IMG/VR virus record: IMGVR_UViG_3300042566_000678
Location: 1 to 64,000 of that record
From: a virus
DNA: 64,000 bases
Strand: one strand, 5' to 3'
Made by a program: the position numbers and the translations under genes
In this document: positions 1 to 16,500 of the stretch, one piece after another
Layout of the letters: each line of letters starts with the position of its first letter
Numbering within the stretch: position 1 is the stretch's first letter
The notes under the pieces: generated by a model
What the model saw: only the letters and a program-made list of their open reading frames with translations
What the model was told of the DNA's origin: nothing
Databases searched by the model: none

Positions 1-185
1 TCATCTAATAATTGTTTTGCTTGGTTTTCTAAAATTACAGCCATTCCGTGCTCTTCAGTTGCACCAGTTAAGCCTTCTAATAAACCAGTTTTTTCCCACT
101 TGTTTTTCAACCCGCGAGTTTGCTCAAGCATAACCGCAGTTGGGTTTTTGCCTTCCATTAATTTGTTTAAATCAAATTGTGCCAT
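1..185 (-). CDS. major capsid protein (T4 gp23-like), 5' part; runs off the window edge
   Basis: Manual translation from ATG at 185: MAQFDLNKLMEG...KWEKTGLLEGL...MAVILENQAKQLLD. KW..LLEG...A.ILENQ is the gp23 N-terminal signature; lies directly downstream of the scaffold gene. Confidence 0.9.
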   Translation of the reverse strand, partial: MAQFDLNKLMEGKNPTAVMLEQTRGLKNKWEKTGLLEGLTGATEEHGMAVILENQAKQLLD

Positions 186-205: not shown

Positions 206-1390
206 TTATTTAATTAATCCTGCTAATTGTTTAAATCTATCAGAGTAAGCAGAATTTTCGCTGATGATTTGTTTTTTTACACCTGTACTCTTTTGTGGTT
301 TAGAAGCTCCTTCAGTAATTCTTTTTACAGATTCTACTTTCTTAACACTTCCACCCATCTTCATAGATTCGGCGATTGTTGAGTAAACCAATTTAACTTC
401 ACGAATTGTTCCAGTTCTATCGAATGAATCAATAACTTTAGATTTTTGTTCGTTAGTTAAGTTGTATCCTCTAAATAATTTGTTAGAATATAAAAGTTTA
501 GCGTTCAATAAGTTAATCTCATTGATTGTAGACTTCAAAGTTTTGATTACAGATATTGCTTGTCTCAATTCATTTTTCAATGATTTTGCTTCTGCTACTG
601 CTGCTTTCTCTTCTTCTTCTGCTGCTTCTTCGTCTTCTAATTCTTTGATGATAGATTCGATGTTTAATTCTTCTTCTTCACCTTCTTCTTCACCTTCTTC
701 CATTTCAGAAGCTTCTTCGTCTTCACCATAGCCTTCTAATTTAGCTATTTCTTTTCTTAATTCAGCGATTTTTTCTGCGTTAGGATTTTCTTCTTCTTCA
801 TCTTCTTCCGAAATTGATGAATCTGAATCATCTGCGTTCATGTAAGTATCAACATCATCTGCATCTTCTTCCATTTCATCATCTGTTCCTAATTCGTCTT
901 CTAATTCACGAATAATAGCTTCTAAATCTAAATCATCTTCAGATGGAGCTTCCATTTCTTCTTCGCCTTCTTCCATTTCCATTTCGTCTTCACCTTCACC
1001 TTCTTCCATTTCCATTTCTTCTTCCTCTTCTTCTGTGATTGATTTAGCGAAATCATAATCTTCAACCTCATCCTCTGGCTTACCAGAAGTTTTAGTTACG
1101 TCTGCTGCACCTAACTCATCTTCAGCTTCTGCTGAATCTAAAGTTGGTTGTGCACCACCCCCAATGTTAGAAGAACTTAATTCTTCTTCCATTTTGTCTT
1201 CTTCTTCTTCCTCATGCATTTCGTCATCAGCTTCCATATCTTCAGCTTCTGCACGTAATTTTTGAGAAAGAATTGACTTCAAACGAGGAGTAAATGCTTC
1301 CTCTAATTGAAGTTTTGCGTTTGCTAATGCAGTTTCTCTTACAGCTTTAGCATCAGCGATTGCTTCTTTTAACAATTTTGAACTTGCCAT
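206..1390 (-). CDS. prohead scaffold/core protein (gp22-like)
   Basis: Very acidic E/D-rich middle, coiled-coil ends, many [LI]-x-E sites; immediately upstream of the capsid gene. Confidence 0.75.
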   Translation of the reverse strand: MASSKLLKEAIADAKAVRETALANAKLQLEEAFTPRLKSILSQKLRAEAEDMEADDEMHEEEEEDKMEEELSSSNIGGGAQPTLDSAEAEDELGAADVTKTSGKPEDEVEDYDFAKSITEEEEEEMEMEEGEGEDEMEMEEGEEEMEAPSEDDLDLEAIIRELEDELGTDDEMEEDADDVDTYMNADDSDSSISEEDEEEENPNAEKIAELRKEIAKLEGYGEDEEASEMEEGEEEGEEEELNIESIIKELEDEEAAEEEEKAAVAEAKSLKNELRQAISVIKTLKSTINEINLLNAKLLYSNKLFRGYNLTNEQKSKVIDSFDRTGTIREVKLVYSTIAESMKMGGSVKKVESVKRITEGASKPQKSTGVKKQIISENSAYSDRFKQLAGLIK

Positions 1391-1558: not shown

Positions 1559-1801
1559 TTATTTGTATAAACTACGAAATTTTTTTGGTATTTCTTTTAA
1601 TTTTTTACCTCTGTAAAGGTCTTTTTGCTGAACTAATTGTTTTCTTTCAGCTTTTTCCATCATTTCTCTCTTTGTAACTGATGGTTTTGTAAATTGTTGT
1701 CTATCTCTTAATTCTTTAACAACACCAATTGCATCAAACTTTTTCTTTAATTTCTTTAATGCTCCGGTTATATTACCGTCTTTTACTTCAATGTTAATCA
1801 T
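1559..1801 (-). CDS. rpsU: phage-encoded 30S ribosomal protein bS21
   Basis: I.VKDG.I..ALKKLKKKFD..GVVKELR.RQ.F.KPSV.KR matches the bS21 pattern; extended basic C-terminal tail. Confidence 0.9.
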   Translation of the reverse strand: MINIEVKDGNITGALKKLKKKFDAIGVVKELRDRQQFTKPSVTKREMMEKAERKQLVQQKDLYRGKKLKEIPKKFRSLYK

Positions 1802-1808
1802 AATAACT

Positions 1809-2171
1809 TTACTTTTGCTCTACTTTGGTGTAACGTTGATTTTTATCGTTTTGTATTCTTTTCTTTGTTGATTTTACTTTATCATATGATGGAGCACCAT
1901 TTATATATCCACCTGGTAATGATAAACCTACACCTGCTCCACCTGGAAATCCATCTTCTTTAACCATAGACTCCGAACACCCAATTGCGTTGTAGAATTT
2001 ACTATAATCAAATTTGATACCTTCATCTTTGAATTGTCTTACCATATTATCGGCAATAGATTTACGATTTTCTACATCTAATACTTGATTTAGAATATCA
2101 ATAATCCCATCTACCATTTGGTATTCGTTATTATCTAACTTTTCCTTTAATATACTTTTTAACTTTATCAT
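1809..2171 (-). CDS. putative internal head protein (MIKLKSILKE tag)
   Basis: Start moved from 2258 to ATG 2171, directly after the stop of the upstream gene; shares the N-terminal tag. Confidence 0.6.
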   Translation of the reverse strand: MIKLKSILKEKLDNNEYQMVDGIIDILNQVLDVENRKSIADNMVRQFKDEGIKFDYSKFYNAIGCSESMVKEDGFPGGAGVGLSLPGGYINGAPSYDKVKSTKKRIQNDKNQRYTKVEQK

Positions 2172-2172
2172 G

Positions 2173-2760
2173 TTATTTACAGGTTTTCCAACCACCACCT
2201 TTTGATTTGTAGTTTTTTGCTGCCCAACCATTTGCATATGCAGATGGATAAACATCAAACTTTGATTTTGCTGCGGATTTAGAAGCAGACCATTTTGCTG
2301 GGTCAGTTGGGCAATTCTTTTCTAAAAATAAATCTAACTTTTCTGCCAACTCATTTTTCTTTGTAGAAACATATATAGGAGTTTTACCTTGTCCTTTACT
2401 ATCACTACCACCTCTATCTGCTGCGTTTTGTGCTGCTCTCTTTCTACGAGTTGCAGACTCCTTTTCTTTTTTACTCATTCCAGCTGCTTTTGCCGCAGGA
2501 ACACATTTAGCATATCCACTCTTTTCACCAGATGTACCACATGGTGGGTGTTTTCCATCAACCTTTTTACCTATGTTTACCCACTTTTCTTTAAACCATT
2601 TCCGTAGGTCTTCTTTTATAGGTGTATTATCAGTACCGCATTTATGACAAGTGTATGGTTTATCACCACCTTCAGCTATATCCCACATCCAATCACAGTT
2701 ATCACAAATTACTTTGTTTCCTTCTACCTTTTCGTTTAATATATCTTTTAACTTAATCAT
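2173..2760 (-). CDS. modular putative internal head protein (Zn ribbon + DUF5872-like basic modules)
   Basis: MIKLKDILNE tag, CxxC-CxxC, then LRKWFKEKWV..PCG..KCVP and KFDVYPSAYANGW..KGGGW modules, with IKE/LAE/FLE at the junctions. Confidence 0.6.
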   Translation of the reverse strand: MIKLKDILNEKVEGNKVICDNCDWMWDIAEGGDKPYTCHKCGTDNTPIKEDLRKWFKEKWVNIGKKVDGKHPPCGTSGEKSGYAKCVPAAKAAGMSKKEKESATRRKRAAQNAADRGGSDSKGQGKTPIYVSTKKNELAEKLDLFLEKNCPTDPAKWSASKSAAKSKFDVYPSAYANGWAAKNYKSKGGGWKTCK

Positions 2761-3149
2761 TATAGTTTCTTCAATAATGTATCCATATCTATTTCAAATG
2801 AATACCCAGCACCACTATGTCTTTTATTTGCAACTACTTTTAATCCTAATTTCTTTTCTATACGAGTTTCTAATGCTGATAAAAAATCATTATCTCCCAA
2901 ACTCTTTTTAATTGTATCTACATTTGTAGAATCTTTTATTGAAGCTGGAATTAAAACAATATTGCCATCTTTTGATGATGCGTAGAACTTAACTCCGCCA
3001 GCTTTAGCAAAATCAATACTAACAGATTGTGCTTCTTCTAATACCTCTTCTTTAACTTGCGGTTTGAATGCAGTATGGTATGGGTTAGAATAAACAACTC
3101 CTTGTTCAAACTTACCATGTCCTTTCATCAAATCGGTTAGCTTTATCAT
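2760..3149 (-). CDS. putative internal head protein (MIKLTDLMK tag)
   Basis: Shared N-terminus; overlaps its neighbour by 1 nt. Confidence 0.55.
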   Translation of the reverse strand: MIKLTDLMKGHGKFEQGVVYSNPYHTAFKPQVKEEVLEEAQSVSIDFAKAGGVKFYASSKDGNIVLIPASIKDSTNVDTIKKSLGDNDFLSALETRIEKKLGLKVVANKRHSGAGYSFEIDMDTLLKKL

Positions 3150-3160
3150 ACTTTTATTAA

Positions 3161-3664
3161 TTAATTTACAGATTCTATTCCATTTTCATCACCTCTGCTA
3201 GCAGTTTTAATACCACCTTCAATTGAAGATAATTTATGTCTAACTTTCTTTGAACCTTTTACTCTCCCATATTCATCCGATGGTACTAATGTTGCGGTTG
3301 TATCATCCATTTCAACAACTTTATAGTATTTACCACCTTCAATTCCTTTTAATCCGGTAAAACCAATTCCTAAAATTACAGAACCAACATATAAATTAGT
3401 TGGATACTTAACCTCTTTTACATATCCTTTCTTAACATATGCGTGTCTTGCTTTAAGATAATCGGCTTTGTGTGCTTTTATATAAGCCAACATTTCACCT
3501 GTTGTATCAAATGATTTTTGACCTGAACCTTTTATGTTGTCCATCCAAAATGAATCTGAATCTCTATCGTATGAATAATCGCCAACTTTTTCACCATCCA
3601 AAGTTATTACACTTTTTTCTGCTTTCCAAGTTTCCTCGTTCAATAATTCTTTTAACTTTATCAT
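3161..3664 (-). CDS. putative internal head protein (MIKLKELLNEE tag)
   Basis: Shared N-terminus; internal VKE junction. Confidence 0.55.
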   Translation of the reverse strand: MIKLKELLNEETWKAEKSVITLDGEKVGDYSYDRDSDSFWMDNIKGSGQKSFDTTGEMLAYIKAHKADYLKARHAYVKKGYVKEVKYPTNLYVGSVILGIGFTGLKGIEGGKYYKVVEMDDTTATLVPSDEYGRVKGSKKVRHKLSSIEGGIKTASRGDENGIESVN

Positions 3665-4461
3665 TATCCTATATAGCAGTTTAATTCGTATCCGTTTTTC
3701 ATTCCGTATACCTGAATGTGTAATTGTTGTTTTGCTGGTTTACCACCTTTGGTAAGTTCTACCGACATCTTATTAGTTTTACCTTCGGATGGTCTTTTTG
3801 GTCCCATTCCAATTTTTCTAAATGAGTCATCATCATCTACCATATACCCTCGTTTCAAAGCGTATTCTTTTGCAGTTTGTATTGCTTCGGTATATGATTT
3901 GTGATATACTTTCAAATCATTTGCTTCGGTTACGGTTTCAACTTTTTTTTTACCAGCTCTTAAATCTGCCAAATCGTCTGAACCAATATCACCATCCTTA
4001 TCCAAATCTAATTTATGTTGATTACCAACTAATTCTTCGCTACGGATACCCAATCTTTGGTTTACTTCTTCTTCACTCAATTCACTAACACCATAGTAAC
4101 GTCCTATAATGTGTCCCATATCTTCGTATAGATTTTCCATTTGTGAATGTAATGACTTTGCCTCGTTAGCTATCTTTTCGAATTGAGATGATAGTTTGTT
4201 CAACTCATTCATATTACGTTTAACAGTCACATCATCAAAGTGATTACCGGCTTCTTTAATAGCAAACTCACTAGCTGCATCTGTGATTGCACCCAATGTT
4301 TCAGCAATTTGTGCCAAATCATTCTCATTCTTTAACTTTGGTCCAAATGAACCATAAGTAGAAATGATTTCTAAAAAGTGTCTTCTTGCTTCGTTGCTTA
4401 AAGTTTGTTTAGGTGCTTTTTTATCTTCACCTTCTCCCAATAATTTCTTTAACTTTATCAT
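3664..4461 (-). CDS. modular putative internal head protein with EF-hand-like DxDxDG motif
   Basis: Start moved to ATG 4461 (MIKLKKLLGE); contains GNQHKLDLDKDGDIGSDDL. Confidence 0.55.
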   Translation of the reverse strand: MIKLKKLLGEGEDKKAPKQTLSNEARRHFLEIISTYGSFGPKLKNENDLAQIAETLGAITDAASEFAIKEAGNHFDDVTVKRNMNELNKLSSQFEKIANEAKSLHSQMENLYEDMGHIIGRYYGVSELSEEEVNQRLGIRSEELVGNQHKLDLDKDGDIGSDDLADLRAGKKKVETVTEANDLKVYHKSYTEAIQTAKEYALKRGYMVDDDDSFRKIGMGPKRPSEGKTNKMSVELTKGGKPAKQQLHIQVYGMKNGYELNCYIG

Positions 4462-4462
4462 A

Positions 4463-4687
4463 TTATTTTGCTTCAAATTGTTCTATAAGTTTGATTGCCA
4501 TATCAATGTGCTTGATAGCTTCTTTGCTATAAGGTGCAATGTTGTGTTTGACCTCTTTTAATCTATCTAATGATTTTTCACGAGTCATAGCGTGCATTGC
4601 TGCTTCTAATAAATCTCTTCGTTCTTGCTCATTGGATTTGGCTTTAATCTTATTAGAAGCCATATATTGCGTTATATTAAATGCCAT
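4463..4687 (-). CDS. hypothetical protein (head module)
   Basis: 74-aa ORF tightly packed between neighbours. Confidence 0.6.
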   Translation of the reverse strand: MAFNITQYMASNKIKAKSNEQERRDLLEAAMHAMTREKSLDRLKEVKHNIAPYSKEAIKHIDMAIKLIEQFEAK

Positions 4688-4694
4688 ATTTTTA

Positions 4695-5279
4695 TTAGTT
4701 TAATTCTTCTATTATTTGTCTCATTAGGTCTTGTGCTTTACACCACTTACCACACTCTTCAATTTCTCTTTGTACGCTTTCATTCATAGCCGTTGGAGAC
4801 ATAAATGCACCATGTGTAGATGGGTTAGATACAAAATCCCAACCAATTAGTTCGAAATCTTCTTGTACCATTACCGTATTCTCTCTCATAGGTTTAACTG
4901 AACCCATACCTCTACTACTAATACCCAAACGAATATTGTGTTTGAATAACTCTTTTAAGATGTTACCAGACGGAGTTGAAAGAACTTCTACTGTACCACA
5001 TAAATCTTTACCATCCCACCAAATCTCTTTGATGTTGTGTGATACGTTCTTTAAGTTGATTACAGTTGATTCTGGATGGTCTAATTCACCTAATGCTCTA
5101 CGTTCTTGTATTAGGGTTTCGTATTTCTTTGCTTCCCTCTGTAATATGTTAAGAGGATAGATACGATGATTTTGGTTAGGAGCATCTGCTCTTTGCAAAA
5201 CGCCTTTAACCAAAAACTTTCCGTTTTCATCTTCTTGTATCTTACCTTCAAAAAGGTTGTGTTCTATTAATAATGCCAT
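4695..5279 (-). CDS. prohead protease (T4 gp21-like)
   Basis: NQNHRIYP, ALGELDHP, GISSRGMGS and DFVSNPS motifs. Confidence 0.95.
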   Translation of the reverse strand: MALLIEHNLFEGKIQEDENGKFLVKGVLQRADAPNQNHRIYPLNILQREAKKYETLIQERRALGELDHPESTVINLKNVSHNIKEIWWDGKDLCGTVEVLSTPSGNILKELFKHNIRLGISSRGMGSVKPMRENTVMVQEDFELIGWDFVSNPSTHGAFMSPTAMNESVQREIEECGKWCKAQDLMRQIIEELN

Positions 5280-5282
5280 ATC

Positions 5283-6167
5283 TTATGATAGTAAGTAGTA
5301 ATACTCTTTAAAATGACGAATACGGTCTGCCAATCCTATTGTACCACCATTTACTCTTTTTGTTATTTGTGTAACTACCGCATCGGAAGAACCACCATCA
5401 GCTAACTTATGTAATCCGTTTTTAGAGAAGAACCAAGCTGCCGAGAGTAAAGCGTATTTGGAGGCAACCACATCTGGGTTTGCACAAACATCTTCACCGA
5501 TGGACTTACCGAATGCGGTATAGTTTTCCTTTCCAGTTAATTGAATATACCCACGTCCTCTGAACTTATAGCCCTCACGAGTTGCTTCAGCTCCATTTCC
5601 CATACGTCCACCATATACTCTACTTGCAATCATCTCTGGCTTTCTCTCATATGCCGTTGCCATTGCTACCGTTGGAAAGTATTTCTTAAATATACCCATC
5701 AATCCTTTTGCAGAATAGTTTAGGTTTTCTTGTGTTGCCTTAAAACCACCACTCTCATGTCCACATTGTGCCAAAAAGTGTGCTAATCTTAAAGGAGTAT
5801 TTATATTGAACTTTACTGCAGTATCTGGAATCATAGCGATTACATTAGCAGGAATGTGTCCTTTTAATTTATCTAATTTTAAACCAGGATAAGATGGCGA
5901 TGATACTACTGTTGGGGCAGGTGCTGCAACAGGTGCAGGAGCTGGAGGAGGTGTAGGTGCTGCTACTGGCTTTGGAACTACGGTAATACCCATAATTTTA
6001 TTCCAAGTATTAGGTCCCACAATACCATCTGCTGCCAAACCATTTTTTGCTTGCCATGCTTTAACTGCATCTTCCGTTTTTGGTCCAAAATTACCAACTG
6101 GGTCTAAACCCAATTTAACCTGTAATTTCTTTACATCTTCGTTATTATCACCTCTCTTTAGTAACAT
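5283..6167 (-). CDS. endolysin: peptidoglycan-binding domain + Pro/Ala linker + GH19 domain
   Basis: LKRGD..VKKLQ..GNFGPKT..AVKAWQ..GLAADGIVGPNT; AHFLAQCGHESGGF, YKFRGRGYIQLTGKENY, ITKRVNGG. Start moved to ATG 6167. Confidence 0.93.
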   Translation of the reverse strand: MLLKRGDNNEDVKKLQVKLGLDPVGNFGPKTEDAVKAWQAKNGLAADGIVGPNTWNKIMGITVVPKPVAAPTPPPAPAPVAAPAPTVVSSPSYPGLKLDKLKGHIPANVIAMIPDTAVKFNINTPLRLAHFLAQCGHESGGFKATQENLNYSAKGLMGIFKKYFPTVAMATAYERKPEMIASRVYGGRMGNGAEATREGYKFRGRGYIQLTGKENYTAFGKSIGEDVCANPDVVASKYALLSAAWFFSKNGLHKLADGGSSDAVVTQITKRVNGGTIGLADRIRHFKEYYYLLS

Positions 6168-6169
6168 AA

Positions 6170-6868
6170 TTAATCTCTCTCCGTTTTTGCTTTCCAAGCT
6201 GTATCTACTTTATTAAAAAATGCTTTCTTTTCATCATCACTCATAGATGGAATAGATTTACCAGCTTTATCCATTACTTTTTGGAAAAACTTTTGGTATT
6301 CTGCTTCCTCTTGCATTACCTCTCTTACGATTGATTTTAATGCTTCTCTCTTTAATGATTTTTGTTTACCCATAGTTTGTGGTAAACCATTTGCTACATT
6401 TTCAATATTTTCTTCAACAAATCCTTTACTTTTATAATCTTTAATTCCCCTTTCCAAATCTACTTTGTTCTTAAAAATCTGTATATCATAAAAATCACTA
6501 CCATCTTTGTGTTTTTTAACACCATCGTGAGAACTGATACTATACTTTGAACTACCAATACCAGGATTTACTTTGAATACTTTCTTACCTTCGTTTACTG
6601 ATTCAAACTTAAAGTCTTGATTTTTTTGAGACTCTGCACTTACAACTGCTAATAAACCAACTTTTGATTTAGGAACTTTTAATTGAGTAATTGCTTTTTG
6701 TTTTGCATCATAAAGGTCTTTTCCATCAATATCAATTTTCTTACCCATAAAGAATGCGATGAACTTTGTTTCCTCTAATTGTTGCTCTTGAACTTTTGCA
6801 GTTCTTGAACCAATTGGTCCACCTAATGCTTGAAGAGTAACGATACCCGATTTTGATAAATGTCTCAT
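6170..6868 (-). CDS. modular putative head-associated protein
   Basis: Short modules separated by LEE/VNE/VEE/VREVMQEE. Confidence 0.5.
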   Translation of the reverse strand: MRHLSKSGIVTLQALGGPIGSRTAKVQEQQLEETKFIAFFMGKKIDIDGKDLYDAKQKAITQLKVPKSKVGLLAVVSAESQKNQDFKFESVNEGKKVFKVNPGIGSSKYSISSHDGVKKHKDGSDFYDIQIFKNKVDLERGIKDYKSKGFVEENIENVANGLPQTMGKQKSLKREALKSIVREVMQEEAEYQKFFQKVMDKAGKSIPSMSDDEKKAFFNKVDTAWKAKTERD

Positions 6869-6869
6869 A

Positions 6870-7301
6870 TTAAAAATCTATAATTGTTCTTGCTATTTTA
6901 TTTAATCTTTCTTTTATACGAAAGATACTTGTGTTTGTTCTTTTGTAGAAATCTTCGTTCTTTACTCCGTTTTCCATTTTAAGTTTGTTGTACCAACCTA
7001 AAAATCTTTCTACCTCTGCTAATTGGTTTTTGATTTCTCTAACACCTAAATTGATTTTTTGTTCTGGTGAACGAGTTTCATCTCTTTTAAGTGCTAACCA
7101 ACGATTTTCAGCTAATTCATATCCAGTTCCAGATGATTTAGCTTTACGCTCTTTATCAGCTTGTGTGTTTTTACCGAATGCAAATGGAGTTTGATACCCA
7201 TCAACTGAAGCAGTTGTAGTTTCTTCGTTAGTTGTTGTATTTCTTTCACGAAGTTTTGTACGGATAATTTCCTTTAATCTATCTCTACTAGATAATGCCA
7301 T
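6870..7301 (-). CDS. hypothetical head-module protein
   Basis: RLKEIIR..LRE N-terminus, GYQTPFAF motif, C-terminal coiled coil. Confidence 0.55.
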   Translation of the reverse strand: MALSSRDRLKEIIRTKLRERNTTTNEETTTASVDGYQTPFAFGKNTQADKERKAKSSGTGYELAENRWLALKRDETRSPEQKINLGVREIKNQLAEVERFLGWYNKLKMENGVKNEDFYKRTNTSIFRIKERLNKIARTIIDF

Positions 7302-8163
7302 TTTGAGTTCCTCTTAATACTTTCTCTAACTCATATCCCATAATAACAGATGTAATATGTGTATCTGTAATTTTAGATGCGGTTTTAATTTTGTTTAACT
7401 GATTGATTGTTTCAGCCAACTTAATTTTGGTAACTTTATCTTTTATTTCTTTACCCGTTTTAGTTAGTTCTTTAGTTAGAGCAACAACTTCGTTTGTAAT
7501 AAATGCTTTAAGATTATCCGAGTTAGTAAATGAATTGATATATTCTTTTAATATACCCTTTTGCTTATCATTTAAGGATTTGTATTTTTTATTAAAGTTC
7601 TCCACCAACATTTTGTATGTTAGTAAACGGATTTCTTTATCTTCTTTTTTAAGAGCTTCGTTGATTTTATCTATCGCTTTTGCGTTTGCAACTGGTTTAG
7701 ATGTAAGATGTTCTACGATTGCAAATTTAGTATTTACAAAATCTTTCGGGTCATAAGAACTTTCAGTATTCAAATTAAATTCAAATATCTTATATACCGA
7801 AGCAAGAACTTTATAGTTTGGAATTTGTGATTTTAAAAAATCATCTATTTGATAATTTTCTTTTATTTCTTTGATAAGATTATACTTTTCTTTAAGTATT
7901 TTTTTCTCATCTAATTTTTTGCGATTATCAATTACCGCATCAATAAATCTTTCAGCACGATTTTCATTATTATATTTTTCATTTACAATGAATTGATATA
8001 ATTTTAATTCGTTTGCTAATTCCGTTTTAGAGTTGAAATACTTCTTTAACAACCCTTCTGCAATACTTTTGCGATTGGAAAGGATGTCAGAGGTTACTTG
8101 ACGAACCAATAGTTCGAAAAGAAAGCCCGTATTTCTAAACTTTGAGTGTTTTATCTGTTTCAT
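7288..8163 (-). CDS. hypothetical helical protein next to portal
   Basis: 291-aa ORF starting KHSKFRNTGFLFELL, preceded by the late-promoter-like motif. Confidence 0.6.
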   Translation of the reverse strand: MKQIKHSKFRNTGFLFELLVRQVTSDILSNRKSIAEGLLKKYFNSKTELANELKLYQFIVNEKYNNENRAERFIDAVIDNRKKLDEKKILKEKYNLIKEIKENYQIDDFLKSQIPNYKVLASVYKIFEFNLNTESSYDPKDFVNTKFAIVEHLTSKPVANAKAIDKINEALKKEDKEIRLLTYKMLVENFNKKYKSLNDKQKGILKEYINSFTNSDNLKAFITNEVVALTKELTKTGKEIKDKVTKIKLAETINQLNKIKTASKITDTHITSVIMGYELEKVLRGTQNGII

Positions 8164-8181
8164 TTATTCTTTATTCCAAAT

Positions 8182-8189
8182 ATAAATAT
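8182..8189 (-). promoter_or_regulatory. putative late promoter ATATTTAT (representative copy)
   Basis: Same 8-mer 5-30 nt upstream of starts at 10637, 13574, 17621, 20837, 25786, 27057, 29021, 40627, 43825, 50818, 52825 and 54693, and inverted at 55011. Confidence 0.7.
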
Positions 8190-8212
8190 ATAATATCTAT
8201 TTAATAATAATT

Positions 8213-10057
8213 TTATTCGATTATATTTTGCTCATCCATCATACTCTTACCTTCCATTATCACCTTTGCTCCACCCGATTTCAAAGTTTTTTTGATTGAT
8301 TTGATGAAATTTTCATTACTTCTACTCAATTTCCTCAACTCCTTATCACCTAACGCATCTCTACCATACATATGGTCATCTTTACCCATACGATTTACAT
8401 GACGAGGTCTACCTGCTGCTTTTACTGATTCGTTTGGTGTTTGTCCTAACTTTGATTTTAAATCTTGTATAGTCTTTTCAACATCCAATGGTTCACCTGT
8501 TGGGAACTCATCTTCTTCTGGTTGGTCTTCTGTTGGTTGTTCTTCACCACCCATTTCAGGTTGTCCACCCATCATTCCACCTTGCTCTTGTTGTCCTTCT
8601 GGCTTTCCAGTTGTTTCTAAATTAGTTAATACAAATAGATTTTTAGCATCTTTAATTAAACCTTCTTTCATATCTTCAACATCATCATCGCTGAAATTGA
8701 ATACATTTTTGTAAACCCAATCTTTAGAAATCAATTTTAAATCGCCCATCGTTCTAGCCAAATCTACTTTAGATGACCATAATTCAATTTTAGATTGCTC
8801 ATAAATTGTGTATGGGATAGTCAATGATAATTCAAAATCAGTTAATTGTTCATCCTCAATACCTTGTGAGTATAAGTGAATGATTGCTATCTTTTCTAAT
8901 TCAGATGTTACAATTCTTTGAACTCTTTCAATAGTTTTGGCAAATCTCATATCCATAGCTGCTAATGTAGCTTTAGAATTACCATCCTCCAAAAATCCTA
9001 AATGTTGTTTTGGTATTTTTAATGCCGCAAACATTTTATCTTTTAAGTAGTTAATATCATCAATAGGAGCATACTCTAAACCATCTAAATTAGAGATTTC
9101 AGTACCACTATCACTACCACGAACTGGCAGATAGAAATCTTCCATCAAGTTTTGGATATTATACTTTAAGTTGTACTCACCAGTATCTGCGTTGATAATA
9201 GGTGCTTTCTTTGATTTGTTGATAATACGTTGAATGTAGTTATCAATCTCATTTGTAGGAATATTACCCACATCAATTTTGTAGATACGTTTTTGTGGTG
9301 CTCTACTGATACGGTGTATAATCATCGCATCTTCCATCAAAGTAATTTGCTTCCACAATCTTCTTGCACTCTCTAACATTGATTTACCATAAGGTAAAAA
9401 GTTAGTATCAGTCAACATACGAAAGTGAGCAATCTCATAGTTTTCGTATTCTGTTTTTTGTCCAGCTACATAAAGTGATTTAGTTGCTAATGGAGTGTGT
9501 ACAAACTTAACTGATTGCCAATTGTTTGGGTCATATCCTTCAACACGAGTAATTTCATAAACTGAAAGTGGTTGTATTCCTACAACACCCAACTCTTCTG
9601 CAATTTCAATATGTAAAAAATGGTCACCATATTTAACCAAACTTCTTACCCAAGGGAATAAGTTGAACTCAACGTTTATAATATCATAGAATAAGTTTTC
9701 TAATATAGATTTTATTTGTTCGTTGTTTGTTCTAACTTCTAATACTTTTCCGTACTCGTTTTTAGATGTAGATTCTTCTGCGTAAATATCTAATGCGGCA
9801 CCAATAATTGGGTCAGCATCCATAGCATCATAATCTCTAAAAAGTTCTTGACGGATTTGTTGGTATGCAAGATAATTCTCATAGGTATTATTCATAGCCG
9901 ATGAGTGTAATCTCATATATCTATCACGTAGATTAGTTGCAATTGATTGAGTTTCATCGTAATCAATTACCTTTAACTTATTCCCCTGCTTTCTTACGAT
10001 TACCGATGTAGAGAATAGTTTGTTTAACCTACCAAAAAATGATTTATCTGTTGCCAT
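8213..10057 (-). CDS. portal protein (T4 gp20-like)
   Basis: LMEDAMIIHRISRAPQKRIYKIDVGNIP, MEDFYLPVRG..GTEI..L.G and ALKIP motifs. Confidence 0.95.
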   Translation of the reverse strand: MATDKSFFGRLNKLFSTSVIVRKQGNKLKVIDYDETQSIATNLRDRYMRLHSSAMNNTYENYLAYQQIRQELFRDYDAMDADPIIGAALDIYAEESTSKNEYGKVLEVRTNNEQIKSILENLFYDIINVEFNLFPWVRSLVKYGDHFLHIEIAEELGVVGIQPLSVYEITRVEGYDPNNWQSVKFVHTPLATKSLYVAGQKTEYENYEIAHFRMLTDTNFLPYGKSMLESARRLWKQITLMEDAMIIHRISRAPQKRIYKIDVGNIPTNEIDNYIQRIINKSKKAPIINADTGEYNLKYNIQNLMEDFYLPVRGSDSGTEISNLDGLEYAPIDDINYLKDKMFAALKIPKQHLGFLEDGNSKATLAAMDMRFAKTIERVQRIVTSELEKIAIIHLYSQGIEDEQLTDFELSLTIPYTIYEQSKIELWSSKVDLARTMGDLKLISKDWVYKNVFNFSDDDVEDMKEGLIKDAKNLFVLTNLETTGKPEGQQEQGGMMGGQPEMGGEEQPTEDQPEEDEFPTGEPLDVEKTIQDLKSKLGQTPNESVKAAGRPRHVNRMGKDDHMYGRDALGDKELRKLSRSNENFIKSIKKTLKSGGAKVIMEGKSMMDEQNIIE

Positions 10058-10102
10058 TTAGCTTTCTGTTTGTTTAATTATATAACCTTTATTATTTTTA
10101 TT

Positions 10103-10609
10103 TTACCACTTTCTGCAAGACCAATATCTTGCTTTGTGTCTTGGACCGGGTTGGTCACAATTGTGTCTTGCTCTAAAAGACCTTCTTGCATCAGGATTAG
10201 ATTTTCTTATTCTCATTGTTTTTTCACCTTTAGATGCTGCTGATGTACCACCATGTCCAAAGTTTACTTTAACAACATTACCTGCTGGATTTTTTACATA
10301 TACTTTAAACTTTTTAACATCACCTCTCATTGGTTTACCCAATTTAACATCTCTACCTTGATATTCTGCTTCAAATACACAATTACAATTGGCTTCATCT
10401 AATGTATTTTTATATGCTTTTAAGAAAGCAATAAAATCATCAATATCTTCCTCTTCTACATCCAACTCATCGTAATCATCATCCTCAATAGCTTCGTTTG
10501 AATTTGGTACACAATTAGGAACTTCCTTTCCGTTCTTCATTTTCATACCAATTTGCTTATATCCATCCCAACAAGGAGAGTTTTCTTTAAGTAAATCCCG
10601 TAGTTTCAT
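10103..10609 (-). CDS. modular putative internal head protein (CWxGY module + DUF6321-like module)
   Basis: Start moved to ATG 10609 (MKLRDLLKE); CWDGYKQIGMKMKNGKEVPNCVP and EAEYQGR..KKFKVYV..VNFG..RRSFRARHNC..ARYWSCRKW. Confidence 0.6.
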   Translation of the reverse strand: MKLRDLLKENSPCWDGYKQIGMKMKNGKEVPNCVPNSNEAIEDDDYDELDVEEEDIDDFIAFLKAYKNTLDEANCNCVFEAEYQGRDVKLGKPMRGDVKKFKVYVKNPAGNVVKVNFGHGGTSAASKGEKTMRIRKSNPDARRSFRARHNCDQPGPRHKARYWSCRKW

Positions 10610-10662
10610 ATTAGTATTATTAAATCTATACAATATATAAATATAACAAAATTGAGTTTAAC

Positions 10663-12258
10663 CTATCGTAACAACCATCTTAAATCTTCAAACTCATCAC
10701 CATGCCCAGTTTGCATTTTGTATGGGTCATCACCAAACATACCAGGTGTGTATAAACTATCATGCGATGTTTGAACAAACCCCTCAATAGAACGTCTTGT
10801 CAAATCAATTCCTTCTTGTCTTAAACGTAATGCGGTATCTCTAATCCACAATCCCATACCCAATGCCATCACCAAGTCATCATTGTAACCTCTTGCCGCT
10901 TCCGCTCTACCATTATTCCAAATAAATGTAAAGAACTCATCAATTGTTCTCTTACTATGAATAATAACACTCATATCTCTCATATAAGTGTCTATCTTTG
11001 ATATTACCAACGGGCGGGTTTTAGATGATATACTAAAGCCAGGAACCATTTGCTTTTCATCTCTGTAAAACTTATTAGTAAATTGAGTATCAATATCTAC
11101 ATATTTAATATCTCTGTTAGACCAGAATAAATTTTTGTAGTTTCTATCTAAACATTGTTGGATAGTTGTCCAACCAATTGATGCATTATCAATGATTAGT
11201 AAAGCATCGTTATATTCAGTTGCTAAATTGATTAGGAAATTACCAAAATCTTTTGGTTCAATTTTACCTCTATATTCAGCAACTTGCTCACAACTCTCTG
11301 CTTCTATAACATGGGCAGTAGAATAATCTTCCCCATCTCCCCTTGCAACGTCAGCCGTAACTATATAACTCTTTGTATAATTTACATCTTCCCAAACCCA
11401 TAAGTTATTATCAAACCCACGCTTATACATTGGGTCTTTAACATATGCTTCTATGTACTTTGTTAAAATTTCTGGTTGAATTACCGTTGCTCCAGAACTG
11501 ATAAAGTCACAATCACATTCCTGTGCTGCTCCCTTTGGTCCTAATTGCTTTTCCTGCTCCTCTCTCCAACTATTATCTCTTTCAGGGTGAACCGTCCAAT
11601 GGAGTTTAATTGGATGAAATAAATTCTCACCATTTTCTGCTTTTACCCAAGTTTGGTGAAACCAATTACCAATACCATTTGGTGTAGATAATGCTATACA
11701 CGCACCACCCGTTGATAGAGTAGATTGTGCCGATGTCCAAATCTCTTCAATGTAATCAATAAAGGCTGCCTCATCAAATACCAATAGTGATAAGGCTTCC
11801 GAACGTCCTGCATCTGGTTTGGATGAAATTGCTTTGATTTGAGAACCATTCTTTAATCTTAAAGATAGTTTGTTATCTTCAGACTCTTGTACCCTTAACC
11901 ATACTGGTAAGAATTGGTTCATTACTCTCACCTTTAATACCAAGTTTTTTGCAACTTCTTGCTTTGTTGCAATAACCAACACGTTATAATCTTCGTTGAA
12001 TATCATACACCATAGTGCATAACCCGCAACTAATGTAGATATACCTAATTGGCGTGATTTTAGAACAACATTAAAACGATTATCTTTAAAATCGTTTAAT
12101 ACTCCTTCTTGAAAATCATATAAATCGAATGGTATTTTCCCACGAACTGGGTGTTGGATTTTACAAAACTTACGCATGAAATAGACGGGGTCTTTTGCAC
12201 AACGTTTGTATTGTTCTTTTACTGCATCTTGCAGAGATTTTGTTTGATTTACGGCCAT
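10663..12258 (-). CDS. terL: terminase large subunit (gp17-like)
   Basis: LYDFQ, KSRQLGIST (Walker A), LLVFDEAAF (Walker B), STPNG, DVARG.G.DYS, NDDLVMA. Confidence 0.96.
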   Translation of the reverse strand: MAVNQTKSLQDAVKEQYKRCAKDPVYFMRKFCKIQHPVRGKIPFDLYDFQEGVLNDFKDNRFNVVLKSRQLGISTLVAGYALWCMIFNEDYNVLVIATKQEVAKNLVLKVRVMNQFLPVWLRVQESEDNKLSLRLKNGSQIKAISSKPDAGRSEALSLLVFDEAAFIDYIEEIWTSAQSTLSTGGACIALSTPNGIGNWFHQTWVKAENGENLFHPIKLHWTVHPERDNSWREEQEKQLGPKGAAQECDCDFISSGATVIQPEILTKYIEAYVKDPMYKRGFDNNLWVWEDVNYTKSYIVTADVARGDGEDYSTAHVIEAESCEQVAEYRGKIEPKDFGNFLINLATEYNDALLIIDNASIGWTTIQQCLDRNYKNLFWSNRDIKYVDIDTQFTNKFYRDEKQMVPGFSISSKTRPLVISKIDTYMRDMSVIIHSKRTIDEFFTFIWNNGRAEAARGYNDDLVMALGMGLWIRDTALRLRQEGIDLTRRSIEGFVQTSHDSLYTPGMFGDDPYKMQTGHGDEFEDLRWLLR

Positions 12259-13595: not shown

Positions 13596-16500
13596 TTAGT
13601 AAAATATTCCTAACAATTGATTTAATGAAGCAAATGCTCCAGTCATCTTAAATACATTACCTTTGTATGTGAATATAATTCCTTCATTTGGAACTATCTT
13701 TTCAAATCCACCAATTGAATTTAATCTTTCTAATTCCAATTTCATTTTTTCAATTTGAGCGGGTGTACCTTCTGCTTTTATTTTATCTATCGTAGAGTCT
13801 AATCTTTTACGGATTGCTTGTAGTGCTTCATTTGGAGATGCAGTCAATACTGATTGCATAAATTGTAAAACTTCTGCGCCTACACCTAAAAATATTTCTT
13901 CAAATTTCATTAGGTTTTCCTTTGCAATCTTATCCTTACTTTGTTTTTCAATACCATCAGCCCAAGCTCTAGCTTTTTCATCACCAATTAAATTGATTCG
14001 GAATGATTTATCACCAAACGCCCATCTTTTTGTTAAACCTTCGATTTCCAATGATGTTAAACCTTTAGAACCTTTTTGTATATAAGTTTTCCACCACGCT
14101 TGATGGTAATCTGCTACTCCAGCATTATCTGGCAAAGTAAACTCACCTTGTAATTTAGATATTTTTGCAAGGAATTTACTTTTCTGTGAGCTTAAATTTT
14201 CACTCTTTGGTAATTTAACAATTGGTGGGCCTTGTATTGTATATTTAGATTGGATATGTGCATTTACTTGCTTTATCATACCGGCCAATATACTTTCAGC
14301 TCCTTTTATTTGTCCAATAGCGTTTCCGGCTTCGTTGTATTCTACTGCGTTGTGAAATACTAACAATGCTTGCCCATAAGGAATAACATTTACAGATGTT
14401 GGATAAATAACCTCTAAATTCATAAATGCTTTACCATTCATAAAGATTTTATCTTTTTGTGCTTGCGATAATCCTCTAATAGCACTTTCCAAATCTTTCA
14501 TAGCAAAGTTGTATGCATCACTCAATGCTCCTCTACCAGCAAATTTTGAAGCCATACCAGAAGCATCCAATGCATTTTCCCCAGCATTTGCCAAATGCCC
14601 TTTGTTTCTTGCTGCAATTAATCTACCATTTTTCCAACTGATTGCTAATGCCTGTCCATCCGTTTTTTCTCTAACTACACCCAACTCACCATCCAATGCT
14701 TTACTAACAATAGTTTTTAAATCTTTAAATGTTAGGTTTATATCAGTATCAAATGGATGATTCATATGTCCATAAGCACCACCTTCCATTAACAAACTTT
14801 CGTTTACAGATTTTGTTTTCTTTTTGTATGGTTCGTATCCACGATTTTGAGTATCTTTTGTATCAGTTTGATGGCCTGGTTGCTTTTCTCTATTATCATC
14901 ATCAAAATCTATCGTATCAAACTCCGGTTCATATCCGTAATCCGGTGTATATGATGAACTCTTATGGTGTTTATTAAAGTTAGCATCTGCTGTACCAACT
15001 GGTTCGTGATTTTTACTAGTAATTGCTTCACCAAACGCACTATGTTTAACTTTATACCAACCGCCGCCGGGTGTTGTAAATAATCTTGCTGGTATTCTAA
15101 ATGTAGAACCTATTGGTAATTTACTGAAATACTTACTATCTATGTGAACCACTTTTGTCACAAACTCTCTAGTCTTGTTATCGGCACCAATCAATTCAAC
15201 CTCAATCTTTACAGGTTGTCCACCTATTTTGATTGTTCCACCAAATATGCCCTTTGTTATTTCATTTAATTTATCTTCTACTTGATAAACAGGTGTTGAT
15301 GATTTGAAATCATCTTTTCTCATTATAGTTTTAGCAATCAATTTGTTTGCTTGAACCATAAATGGAATGTTAATACCAGTTCGTTTATCCTTTACTACAA
15401 ATTCATTGTATTGTTTGATAAACTCTAAAAACTTTTTCTTATTCTTTGCTAATCTTTTAAAGAAACCAGTTAGTTCTGCTGGTGATATTTCTTTACCATT
15501 ACGAGGGTCATTCAATCTTTGGAAAAAATGGTCTGTTTCTTTTCCTAATACAACATCTTCAGGTGATAATTGAGAGTCAGCGTATTTTTCTACCTTATCC
15601 ATATCAACCTTTGCCATTTCTTTTAATTCATTTGGGTTTGTAGTTTCCCAATCTGTTTCACTAACCTTGCCACTTTCCTTGTCTTTATTATATCCATCAA
15701 CCGCTTTTGCCCAAACCGCTGGTGGTATAGCTCCATTCATTATATTATCGGCAAGTTGTAATGTAAAGTATTCAATGTAAGTTTCATCTGTAATGTTTTC
15801 TGCACCGGCATTTAATACTGCCTTACCAATACCCATAGTTGCAACTTCCACTGCCATATGTTCCGCAAGGTGTAAACCTACACCTGCCAACAATTTAGCA
15901 GGTCCTACTGCAAGTGAAGCAACACCCCCCGTCAATAACATACTACCAACAGTCAAACCTACTGTTTTAGCAATACCAATCATTGCTTTCTTTTGTTTTT
16001 CATCTGGTTTTTTACCAGAGAAAACTGCTTTAAATCCTTCCCCTGCTTCTTTTATTTCGTGCCCTAAATGTTTTGCTTCTCTAACTACACCCTTTACAAT
16101 ACCTTTTGCTTTATCAGCCATCCACTGTCCAACACTACGTCTTTCTTCAGATTGAGGCTTATGTGCTCCTTTGAAAAAATCTTTTTCCTTTTCACTCCAA
16201 TTTTTTATTTTTTGGCCCACTGCTCTTAATACCGCTTTTGGATTTGATACTGCCGTTTTAGCAACCTTTGTTGCGGATGCTTGCGAATCTTTTTCTCCAC
16301 TTTTTGCAACTGATGGTGATTGTACTTTTTGTTTAACCTTTTGTAATTTTTGCTTATCCGAGCCACCGGCTTTTGCAACCAACATCATTGCAGCTTTGTA
16401 AGCAGGATGGTCTCGTTTATAGTTCAATGCGGAACTTACTTTAATATCTTCACCCGTATCTGGGTTTTTTACTAACTGATTTAGGATTTGTGGAGAATAC

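Follow-up and report, generated by a model that had tools for sequence, protein, structure and literature searches.

The window analysed here is the whole 64,000-nt stretch comprising positions 1 to 64,000 of IMG/VR virus record IMGVR_UViG_3300042566_000678, and it begins with the head genes of a phage genome of 148,235 bp; the contig breaks off within the capsid gene and does not circularise. Six ORFs in this region, with starts at 2171, 2760, 3149, 3664, 4461, and 10609, begin with one and the same leader, MIKLKDLLxE, and their N-termini lie on the minus strand exactly where the original prediction had placed them. The features of the head cluster are as follows.

206..1390, minus strand: scaffold-like protein, 394 aa, extremely acidic, between the cargo block and the capsid gene
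1809..2171, minus strand: ORF A, 120 aa, leader and two modules joined at Val-Lys-Glu72
2173..2760, minus strand: ORF B, 195 aa, leader, CxxC...CxxC module, one DUF5872 part (51–140), short spacer, other DUF5872 part (148–195)
2760..3149, minus strand: ORF C, 129 aa, composite leader, in which the ten-residue tag minus Glu10 is followed by a longer second leader type ending in Val-Lys-Glu34
3161..3664, minus strand: ORF D, 167 aa, leader and two modules joined at Val-Lys-Glu84
3664..4461, minus strand: ORF E, 265 aa, leader, helical acidic core (11–about 140), low-confidence linker, 86-aa basic module after Val-Thr-Glu179
4695..5279, minus strand: prohead protease, T4 gp21 homologue (Peptidase_S77, E 2e-26)
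6170..6868, minus strand: 232-aa modular protein between portal and protease, with another N-terminal leader type and an internal Glu-Ser-Val-Asn-Glu linker
8213..10057, minus strand: portal protein (Portal_T4, E 1e-69)
10103..10609, minus strand: ORF F, 168 aa, leader (1–9), CWxGY mini-module, acidic stretch, very basic C-terminal module (81–168, net charge +17)

All ORF starts of the genome were checked for the leader with a position matrix that had been trained on the leaders of relatives alone. The profile singled out eight of the 1,122 Met-started frames, with scores of 18–25.5 bits, and the next best frame scored −0.6. Six of the eight tagged ORFs lie within the head cluster of about 12 kb, beside the gp21-type protease, and the remaining two lie beyond the window, at genome positions 101979 and 140421. 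The scaffold and the capsid protein had been described as starting similarly; neither belongs to the leader class, and the scaffold scored −3.5 bits. The core pattern [KR]L..[LIVM][LIVM].E occurred seven times in the genome, each time N-terminally, and no internal occurrence was found in the 41.6k residues of the genome ORFs of at least 100 aa. As a class, the tag is discrete, portable, confined to N-termini, and tied to the head operon. Its conserved positions are Lys3, Leu4, Leu/Ile7, Leu/Met/Ile/Val8, and Glu10, and positions 8–10 read L/M/I/V-x-E in seven of the eight ORFs, the exception being ORF C, whose lack of Glu10 counts against a role in capsid loading. Glu10 was present in 80 of 116 unique leaders of relatives, collected with a search pattern that did not demand it. 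Being charged and lacking both a hydrophobic core and a Cys, the leader was rejected as a secretion signal. We found no paper describing this leader or the Glu-Ser-Val-Asn-Glu linker.

In 80 related IMG/VR loci, the leader was confined to N-termini and to the strand of the protease, and each of the 62 loci whose sequence runs on for 1.5 kb or more downstream of the protease had one to five leader ORFs there. A DNA-pattern scan of IMG/VR yielded at least 92 distinct tagged proteins, nearly all without a known family, and the leader heads at least 32 body clusters that have no detectable similarity to one another. Even close relatives, with proteases 95–99% identical, carried differing cassette sets; modules that are internal here stood alone behind their own leaders in relatives, and modules had moved between genes and between the two cargo loci. 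For example, the halves of ORF D are separate leader-bearing ORFs in relatives (L003:12141, 83 aa; L005:9677, 93 aa), and the C-terminal module of ORF E stands alone behind its own leader in L004 and L005. Residues 48–194 of ORF B are fused in relatives to ORF F, between the terminase and portal genes, which is also the position of ORF F here. The long leader type of ORF C heads a HAD enzyme and acidic modules in other phages, and all relatives retain the acidic core of ORF E immediately downstream of the protease.

The assignment of the gp21-like protease was borne out. The protein belongs to the S77 family and aligned to the T4 gp21 structure 5JBL (E 9e-18), and its His and Ser align with the two residues that the solved 5JBL chain has as Ala; these are the positions of H85 and S140, the catalytic residues mutated to inactivate T4 gp21 (PMC12991175). 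T4 gp21 cleaves after Glu in I/L-x-E (PMC12991175, PMC5694885), and the protease at 4695–5279 is presumed to be the processing enzyme for the tagged proteins. The 394-aa acidic protein occupies the syntenic gp22 position, as judged from its position, composition, and synteny with relatives; it had no Pfam match, and it is presumed to be the docking partner of the leader.

The module junctions named in the original prediction do carry a hydrophobic-x-Glu (h-x-E) motif in the sequence, and the enrichment test across relatives came out in the same direction. With the test anchored on the motif, replacing an after-leader alignment-start test that was biased against exact matches, 44 of 52 unique junction contexts had h-x-E 0–6 residues upstream, against a background of 18.3% (P = 5e-25); when junctions were counted by a hand-made grouping of the upstream partner families, 12 of 14 had the motif (P = 9e-8). 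The motif was kept regardless of the adjoining module. One module found with four unrelated upstream partners had h-x-E at equal distance in all four, and where a module takes the first place, the Glu of the leader itself substitutes for the junction Glu. In L011:12878, a 58-aa cassette is inserted exactly at the junction that is Val-Lys-Glu72 in ORF A, with h-x-E on both sides. Predicted cuts also coincide with PHROG domain matches, which in ORF F begin at residues 10 and 81 (25 homologues all keep Glu80), and with the linker boundary in the AF2 model of ORF E (pLDDT <50 at 1–21 and 140–180, and 74–85 at 181–265). The 232-aa protein at 6170..6868 is part of the same system, though absent from the original prediction: its PHROG matches span residues 31–79 and 189–228, its modules recur in a 579-aa polyprotein (L056:3194), and the Glu-Ser-Val-Asn-Glu linker recurs in long polyproteins. 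The modules are thus split by a recurring motif at evolutionary module boundaries, as in polyproteins. Counting against this are six CWxGY junction contexts, in which P3 is Thr or Gln and not hydrophobic, and the fact that h-x-E is common in Lys/Glu-rich helices generally. [VLI]KE and [VLI]NE were enriched over shuffles in the whole set, a result on which we do not rely, as redundancy among homologues and the composition of helices confound it.

Annotation of the modules gave little beyond DUF5872, whose proposed presence was confirmed by Pfam in ORF B; this family is itself two modules, permuted in ORF B, and the 51–140 part has a net charge of +12. The suggested DUF6321-like module had no DUF6321 match up to E 1, and the EF-hand-like and Zn-ribbon modules are candidates assigned by sequence pattern alone. 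The AF2 model of ORF F (pLDDT 48) was too poor for use, and Foldseek searches of PDB and BFVD with the ORF E model returned one uncharacterised homologue and nothing else. ESM Atlas gave no usable match for two modules, and when 20 further tagged proteins were searched with Pfam, the only matches were to DUF6934 and, weakly, to a YunG-like family. No GenBank phage matched the region by megablast. The nearest named phages are Flavobacterium phage immuto and Microcystis phage Mel-JY01, and neither of their head clusters has the expanded cassette or the exact leader; in Mel-JY01, only the cytidylyltransferase-like protein has a similar leader start. Upstream of ORF F lies a promoter-like motif that relatives have conserved and that did not recur elsewhere in this genome.

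The known system closest to these features is the capsid targeting sequence (CTS) of T4, in which IPI, IPII, IPIII, and Alt likewise carry an N-terminal propeptide of about ten residues on otherwise unrelated proteins (PMC9026906, PMC3012670, PMC5694885, PMC12373910). As here, the T4 CTS is hydrophobic at positions 4 and 7, has h-x-E at positions 8–10, and occurs with a gp21-type S77 protease; its gene sets differ between close relatives, and some tagged enzymes, such as Alt, lie outside the head genes. In the IPIII signal MKTYQEFIAE (PMC8442874), positions 4 and 7 serve targeting and positions 8 and 10 serve processing (PMC9026906), and the conserved leader positions match these key positions, supporting the capsid-loading reading. 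A T4 reporter fusion whose Glu10 has been replaced by Asp still enters the capsid. Neither the leaders nor the cargo have sequence homology to T4 internal proteins, and Pfam and PHROG searches gave no match naming an internal protein, which makes descent from the T4 ip genes less likely but not a CTS-like mode of working. In contrast to T4, most of the cargo genes here belong to the head operon, where they lie between the protease and scaffold genes, many precursors are multi-module with internal cut motifs and a recurrent linker, and several leader types coexist. The variable ip loci of T-even phages, recognised by a signal sequence that they share (reference 27 of PMC12373910), are similarly a hotspot of non-homologous small genes united by the leader only, for which an arms race with host defences is the inferred driver; their genes are single-domain and Ip1-3 inhibit GmrSD type IV restriction enzymes, whereas Pfam and fold searches of the cargo here were blank.

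Taken together, a shared ten-residue tag ending in a protease motif, with modules joined at that same motif, suggests that these proteins are probably loaded into the capsid and cut apart as in T4. We regard it as probable that a distant, uncultured lineage of T4-like phages uses a T4-type system for capsid targeting and processing here, and the leader and polyproteins are best read as a variant form of that system. The original proposal of a portable tag on protease-cut polyproteins is supported, and every computational test that was run fits what it would predict. From the T4 precedent we infer docking, packaging, cleavage, retention, and injection. The amphipathic leader would dock nascent cargo on the scaffolding core during prohead assembly; after shell closure, the gp21-like serine protease would cut after the Glu of h-x-E at the leader end and at the linkers, so that each precursor would give several small pieces. 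The basic C-terminal modules would then remain with the DNA and exit the capsid together with it on infection, and the leaders and acidic spacers would be lost in the manner of scaffold fragments.

An unlikely alternative is that leaders and linkers are merely protease-removed propeptides or spacers, giving zymogen-like control or several small proteins per gene, and that any capsid entry occurs by other means. The h-x-E evidence does bear directly on cleavage alone, T4 gp21 is able to act on a non-capsid substrate (PMC12991175), and in more distant relatives a DUF5872-CWxGY fusion starts with just Met-Asn-Glu, which counts against the targeting reading by showing that modules can exist without the long leader. 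However, seven conserved positions before the cut go far beyond what the internal linkers need, the leader is strictly N-terminal, the same positions carry targeting in T4 (PMC9026906), and S77 proteases are assembled into the prohead core and activated there (PMC5694885). It is quite unlikely that the tag serves some other partner, as an N-terminus bound or modified by a phage or host factor, or one that directs cytoplasmic complexes or turnover. About a third of the tagged ORFs from the DNA-pattern scan (33 of the 92 listed) had no head marker in their locus, and the tagged HAD and 2H proteins resemble enzymes of the cytoplasm, both of which favour such a partner; two tagged genes of this genome encode ordinary-looking enzymes far from the head genes, which counts against capsid loading. 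Against it, the leader ends in the gp21 motif, and tagged genes cluster directly after the protease wherever enough sequence was available (62/62 loci). The HAD-like enzyme, encoded elsewhere in the genome, has four leader types among different phages, which have in common only a terminal h-x-E, placed in each just before the start of the conserved domain. T4, too, encodes packaged proteins away from its head genes (PMC12373910), and in a non-systematic look at the gene maps, the tagged genes had no further conserved enzyme gene as a neighbour.

Conservation at the DNA or translation level, with the start kept as recombination microhomology or initiation context and the peptide incidental, seems very unlikely as the whole explanation. 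Codons 2–4 are almost fixed as ATA AAG TTA (AAG in 59 of 63 leaders against 29% genome-wide), so part of the leader conservation could indeed lie in the DNA; two Met-Lys-Leu-Arg leaders have rarer codons in common, and the tagged genes follow closely on one another, each stop either abutting the next start or sharing one base with it. Codons and residues at positions 5–10 vary, yet hydrophobicity at 7–8 and Glu at 10 are kept, leader types with different DNA occur on the same HAD enzyme, and the internal junction rule has no DNA-level explanation. Recombination at the leaders may well be the route by which cassettes move, which complements the capsid-targeting reading and does not displace it. 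That the ORFs are diverged duplicates keeping only their N-termini, with h-x-E as composition noise, is extremely improbable: the genes are adjacent and the AT-rich genome is rich in Lys and Glu, but the bodies fall into those at least 32 dissimilar clusters, the modules map to different PHROG families, and the leader-profile, core-pattern, and junction statistics exclude chance.

Beyond T4-style capsid targeting, two other systems bear comparison. Encapsulin cargo-loading peptides are short portable peptides that load diverse cargo into an HK97-fold shell, as proposed here; unlike the leader, they are usually C-terminal, bind the shell directly, and remain uncleaved, and their cargo is not delivered to another cell. 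The other system comprises the inner-body and ejection proteins of phiKZ, 201phi2-1, and SPN3US. Many head proteins of these phages are processed by gp175/gp245, which are diverged homologues of gp21 and cut after the Glu of a three-residue motif, in many cases more than once per protein; paralogues among them have conserved N-termini suggested to be CTS-like (PMC5694885, PMC9026906). Their motif is Ser/Ala/Gly-x-Glu and their propeptides often exceed 100 residues, whereas here P3 is Leu/Ile/Val/Met/Phe and the leader has 9–10 residues; no short universal tag has been described for them, and no polyproteins of shuffled mini-modules.

The three internal proteins of T4 are all defence inhibitors, and injected proteins act before phage gene expression. 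If the capsid-targeting reading is correct, the injected proteins of uncultured phages could be read from metagenomes through the tag and the cut motif. More tentatively, it is possible that the leader and the h-x-E grammar mark a predictable set of injected proteins in a large uncultured aquatic T4-like clade, including a HAD-type phosphatase and a 2H/Acb1-like phosphodiesterase; these might arrive with the DNA and blunt host signalling or RNA-damage defences before expression, with acidic N-proximal modules neutralising the basic DNA-binding modules until cleavage. The polyprotein form, with several products freed in the capsid from one tagged precursor, would exceed what is described for T4 and would account for the shuffled-fragment appearance of families such as DUF5872 in Pfam and PHROG. 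The host is probably not an enterobacterium; the nearest named relatives infect Flavobacterium and Microcystis. The tag could be used as a means to load foreign proteins into phages that infect hosts other than enterobacteria.

The genome is a single contig of 148,235 bp with approximately 32% G+C, of which the window forms the first 64 kb. The cluster analysed here lies at the start of the window, is encoded entirely on the minus strand, and constitutes the head operon of a myovirus distantly related to T4. Its genes, together with two leader-bearing genes outside the window, are as follows.

10663–12258, minus strand: large terminase
10103–10609, minus strand: ORF F, between the terminase and the portal
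8213–10057, minus strand: T4-type portal (Portal_T4, E 1e-69)
7288–8163, 6870–7301, and 6170–6868, minus strand: three unknown ORFs
5283–6167, minus strand: peptidoglycan-binding/GH19-like protein (PG_binding_1 plus GH19-like)
4695–5279, minus strand: prohead protease (Peptidase_S77)
Between the protease and ORF E, minus strand: 74-aa ORF
4461 down to 1809, minus strand: ORFs E, D, C, B, and A in that order, tightly coupled
1559–1801, minus strand: ribosomal protein bS21 (Ribosomal_S21, E 1.9e-14)
206–1390, minus strand: scaffold-like protein, extremely acidic
185, minus strand: start of the capsid gene
101452–101979 (L083:1453–1980, a locus of this genome), minus strand: HAD-like protein with leader, start 101979, outside the window
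139894–140421 (L084:1395–1922, likewise), minus strand: 176-aa 2H phosphoesterase with leader (2_5_RNA_ligase2, E 1.4e-8), start 140421, outside the window

The portal shares 48% identity with that of Flavobacterium phage immuto, 47% with Microcystis phage Mel-JY01, and 32% with Rhodothermus phage RM378, the closest named phages, and the region had no nucleotide-level match among GenBank phages. The capsid gene (window 1–185) is truncated by the contig start, and the contig ends neither overlap nor join in frame; therefore, the assembly is open at this gene. The bS21 gene separates the cargo block from the scaffold gene, a position kept in relatives and in Mel-JY01. The PG_binding_1 plus GH19-like protein, which carries no leader, is encoded inside the operon immediately upstream of the protease, and its gene keeps this place in close relatives.

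The original prediction reported a shared leader (M(I)KLxxLLxE) on ORFs A–F; the six N-termini, of the general form MIKLKDLLxE, matched exactly, and the observation was confirmed overall. When all Met-started frames of at least 40 aa in the genome were scored with a position matrix built only from the leaders of relatives, eight starts scored 18–25.5 bits and the ninth −0.6, indicating a discrete class. Six of the eight are in the head cluster and two outside the window. The core pattern occurred seven times in the genome, always N-terminally, and never inside long ORFs (41.6k residues searched). The leader of ORF C lacks Glu10. The scaffold and capsid, said to start similarly, do not belong to this class, with the scaffold start scoring −3.5. 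The leader of the 2H phosphoesterase has the Met-Lys-Leu-Arg form and was kept in all six of its eight close IMG/VR homologues with a complete N-terminus; the match of this enzyme to Acb1-like proteins was weak and below the cut-off. Its gene directly follows a tRNA-like 3′ end.

Scanning IMG/VR with the protease yielded 80 loci (73–99% identity), in which the protease strand carried 152 copies of the leader; the six minus-strand matches represent a single spurious frame within the portal gene. A stricter pattern gave 128 matches on the protease strand versus none on the opposite strand, and three more leader types were likewise restricted to this strand and to the N-terminus. One to five leader ORFs followed the protease in every locus whose downstream sequence extended for at least 1.5 kb (62 of 62). 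The consensus of 116 unique tagged proteins was Met, Ile, Lys, Leu, Lys/Arg, Asp/Asn/Lys, Leu/Ile, Leu/Met/Ile/Val, x, Glu, with Glu10 in 80, even though the search pattern made no demand for it. An exact DNA-pattern scan of IMG/VR retrieved at least 120 stretches, encoding at least 92 unique complete tagged proteins in at least 32 mutually dissimilar body clusters. Among the matches listed (92 proteins), a head marker lay no more than 6 kb away for 59; the other 33, about a third, did not adjoin head genes.

The protease aligns to T4 gp21 (PDB 5JBL, E 9e-18). At two alignment columns the solved chain has Ala, whereas the phage protease has His and Ser; these columns correspond to H85 and S140, whose mutation inactivates gp21 (PMC12991175). 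T4 gp21 cleaves after Glu, mainly at Ile/Leu-x-Glu and to a lesser extent at other x-x-Glu sites (PMC12991175; PMC5694885). To evaluate the proposed hydrophobic-x-Glu junctions, we anchored on conserved module cores, counted unique upstream contexts, and scored the motif 0–6 residues upstream. It was found in 44 of 52 contexts against a background of 18.3% (P 5e-25), upholding this part of the prediction, and in 12 of 14 upstream partner families, grouped by hand (P 9e-8). By module, it preceded CWxGY in 24/30 contexts, the acidic module in 14/16, the ORF E C-terminal module in 4/4 with four unrelated partners, and two further modules in 1/1 each; the six CWxGY exceptions retained the P1 Glu, with Thr or Gln at P3. 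When a module is placed first, its core is as far from the leader Glu as the core of an internal copy is from the junction Glu. Boundaries called independently by PHROG profiles and AlphaFold agree with the junctions: the profiles begin matching ORF B at residue 51 and ORF F at residues 10 and 81, Glu80 of ORF F being invariant in 25 homologues, and the ORF E model (40 sequences) has pLDDT <50 at 1–21 and 140–180 and 74–85 in the module at 181–265, directly after Val-Thr-Glu179.

Cassette sets differ between phages with 95–99% identical proteases. Across three related loci (L003, L004, and L005), the ORF E C-terminal module and the two halves of ORF D occur as individual ORFs with leaders of their own, the first ORF D module is joined via an extra module to the ORF C body (L004 and L005), and ORF B residues 48–194 are fused to ORF F between the terminase and portal (L005, L007, and L011). 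L011 also has a 58-aa cassette exactly at the ORF A junction, flanked on both sides by hydrophobic-x-Glu. The Pfam DUF5872 model comprises two modules, which ORF B (2173–2760) has in the opposite order, with profile positions 1–38 matching its C-terminal module and 39–97 an earlier one. In relatives, a Glu-Ser-Val-Asn/Lys-Glu linker is repeated between modules of long polyproteins (L056:3194, 579 aa; L054:12302), and in the 232-aa ORF (6170–6868) it precedes a module that also occurs in L056. In distant relatives, a DUF5872-CWxGY fusion begins with only Met-Asn-Glu, with a stop codon immediately upstream; therefore, the long leader is dispensable for those modules.

The most informative example is the HAD-like enzyme. 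Across 80 IMG/VR loci, its homologues have a constant domain start but differ in the N-terminal extension, of which there are at least four kinds: the ten-residue tag, a Met-x-Asn-Ala-Phe type, a 22–25-residue type that is also the second half of the ORF C leader, and an Ile-Ser-Arg-Ser-Leu-Phe type. Each extension terminates with hydrophobic-x-Glu, a few residues upstream of the conserved domain. Interchangeable leaders having the cut motif alone in common are as predicted by a removable, lineage-matched sorting signal.

In T4, the internal proteins and Alt carry propeptides of 10–19 residues, which attach to the scaffolding core and which gp21 removes. Within the IPIII propeptide, positions 4 and 7 contribute to targeting and 8 and 10 to processing, and an Asp at position 10 prevents cleavage while still allowing packaging (PMC9026906). 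The leader described here is conserved at positions 3, 4, 7, 8, and 10, compared with key positions 4, 7, 8, and 10 of the IPIII signal, MKTYQEFIAE (PMC8442874). T-even ip genes are variable hotspots with nothing but the leader in common, and Ip1–3 act as inhibitors, each of a different GmrSD restriction enzyme (PMC12373910, PMC3012670). In giant phages, the gp21 homologues have diverged, the cleavage motif is Ser/Ala/Gly-x-Glu, and the propeptides are long (PMC5694885). Judged from sequence and the T4 precedent, capsid loading by a tag followed by protease cleavage is the best-supported explanation and probably the correct one. It is weakened by the Met-Asn-Glu starts in distant relatives, by the missing Glu10 of ORF C, and by the third of tagged IMG/VR ORFs located away from head genes. 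On this reading, the system belongs in kind with T4 capsid targeting and internal proteins, as a variant of them, and is not categorically new; our literature search found no paper on the leader or the polyproteins.

After the predicted maturation, the C-terminal modules would be strongly basic, with net charges of +12 and +8 (ORF B), +17 (ORF F), and +5 (ORFs A and E), and the N-proximal segments of the cargo are acidic, which would fit DNA-associated internal proteins and discarded spacers, respectively. Pfam, PHROGs, ESM Atlas, and Foldseek assigned no function to the cargo.

At the DNA level, leader codons 2–4 are near-fixed as ATA AAG TTA (e.g., window 2142–2171, 2731–2760, 3635–3664, and 4432–4461). 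The Lys codon is AAG in 59 of 63 unique leaders versus 29% genome-wide, where AAA makes up 71% of Lys codons. At positions 5–10, codons vary and the residue class is constant; both Met-Lys-Leu-Arg leaders have a CTA Leu codon. The leader DNA probably spreads by recombination, with selection retaining the peptide. An AT-rich 15-nt motif lies at window 10631–10645, approximately 21 nt upstream of the ORF F start, and is also conserved before the homologous gene in distant relatives. With no second copy elsewhere in the genome, it could be a promoter specific to a single gene. In Mel-JY01 (L288:11243–13162), a cytidylyltransferase-like protein, corresponding to the first part of the 1339-aa ORF in the window (13596–17615), begins with an 11-residue leader-like N-terminus ending in Leu-Ser-Glu; this phage is cultured and is a possible experimental entry point.
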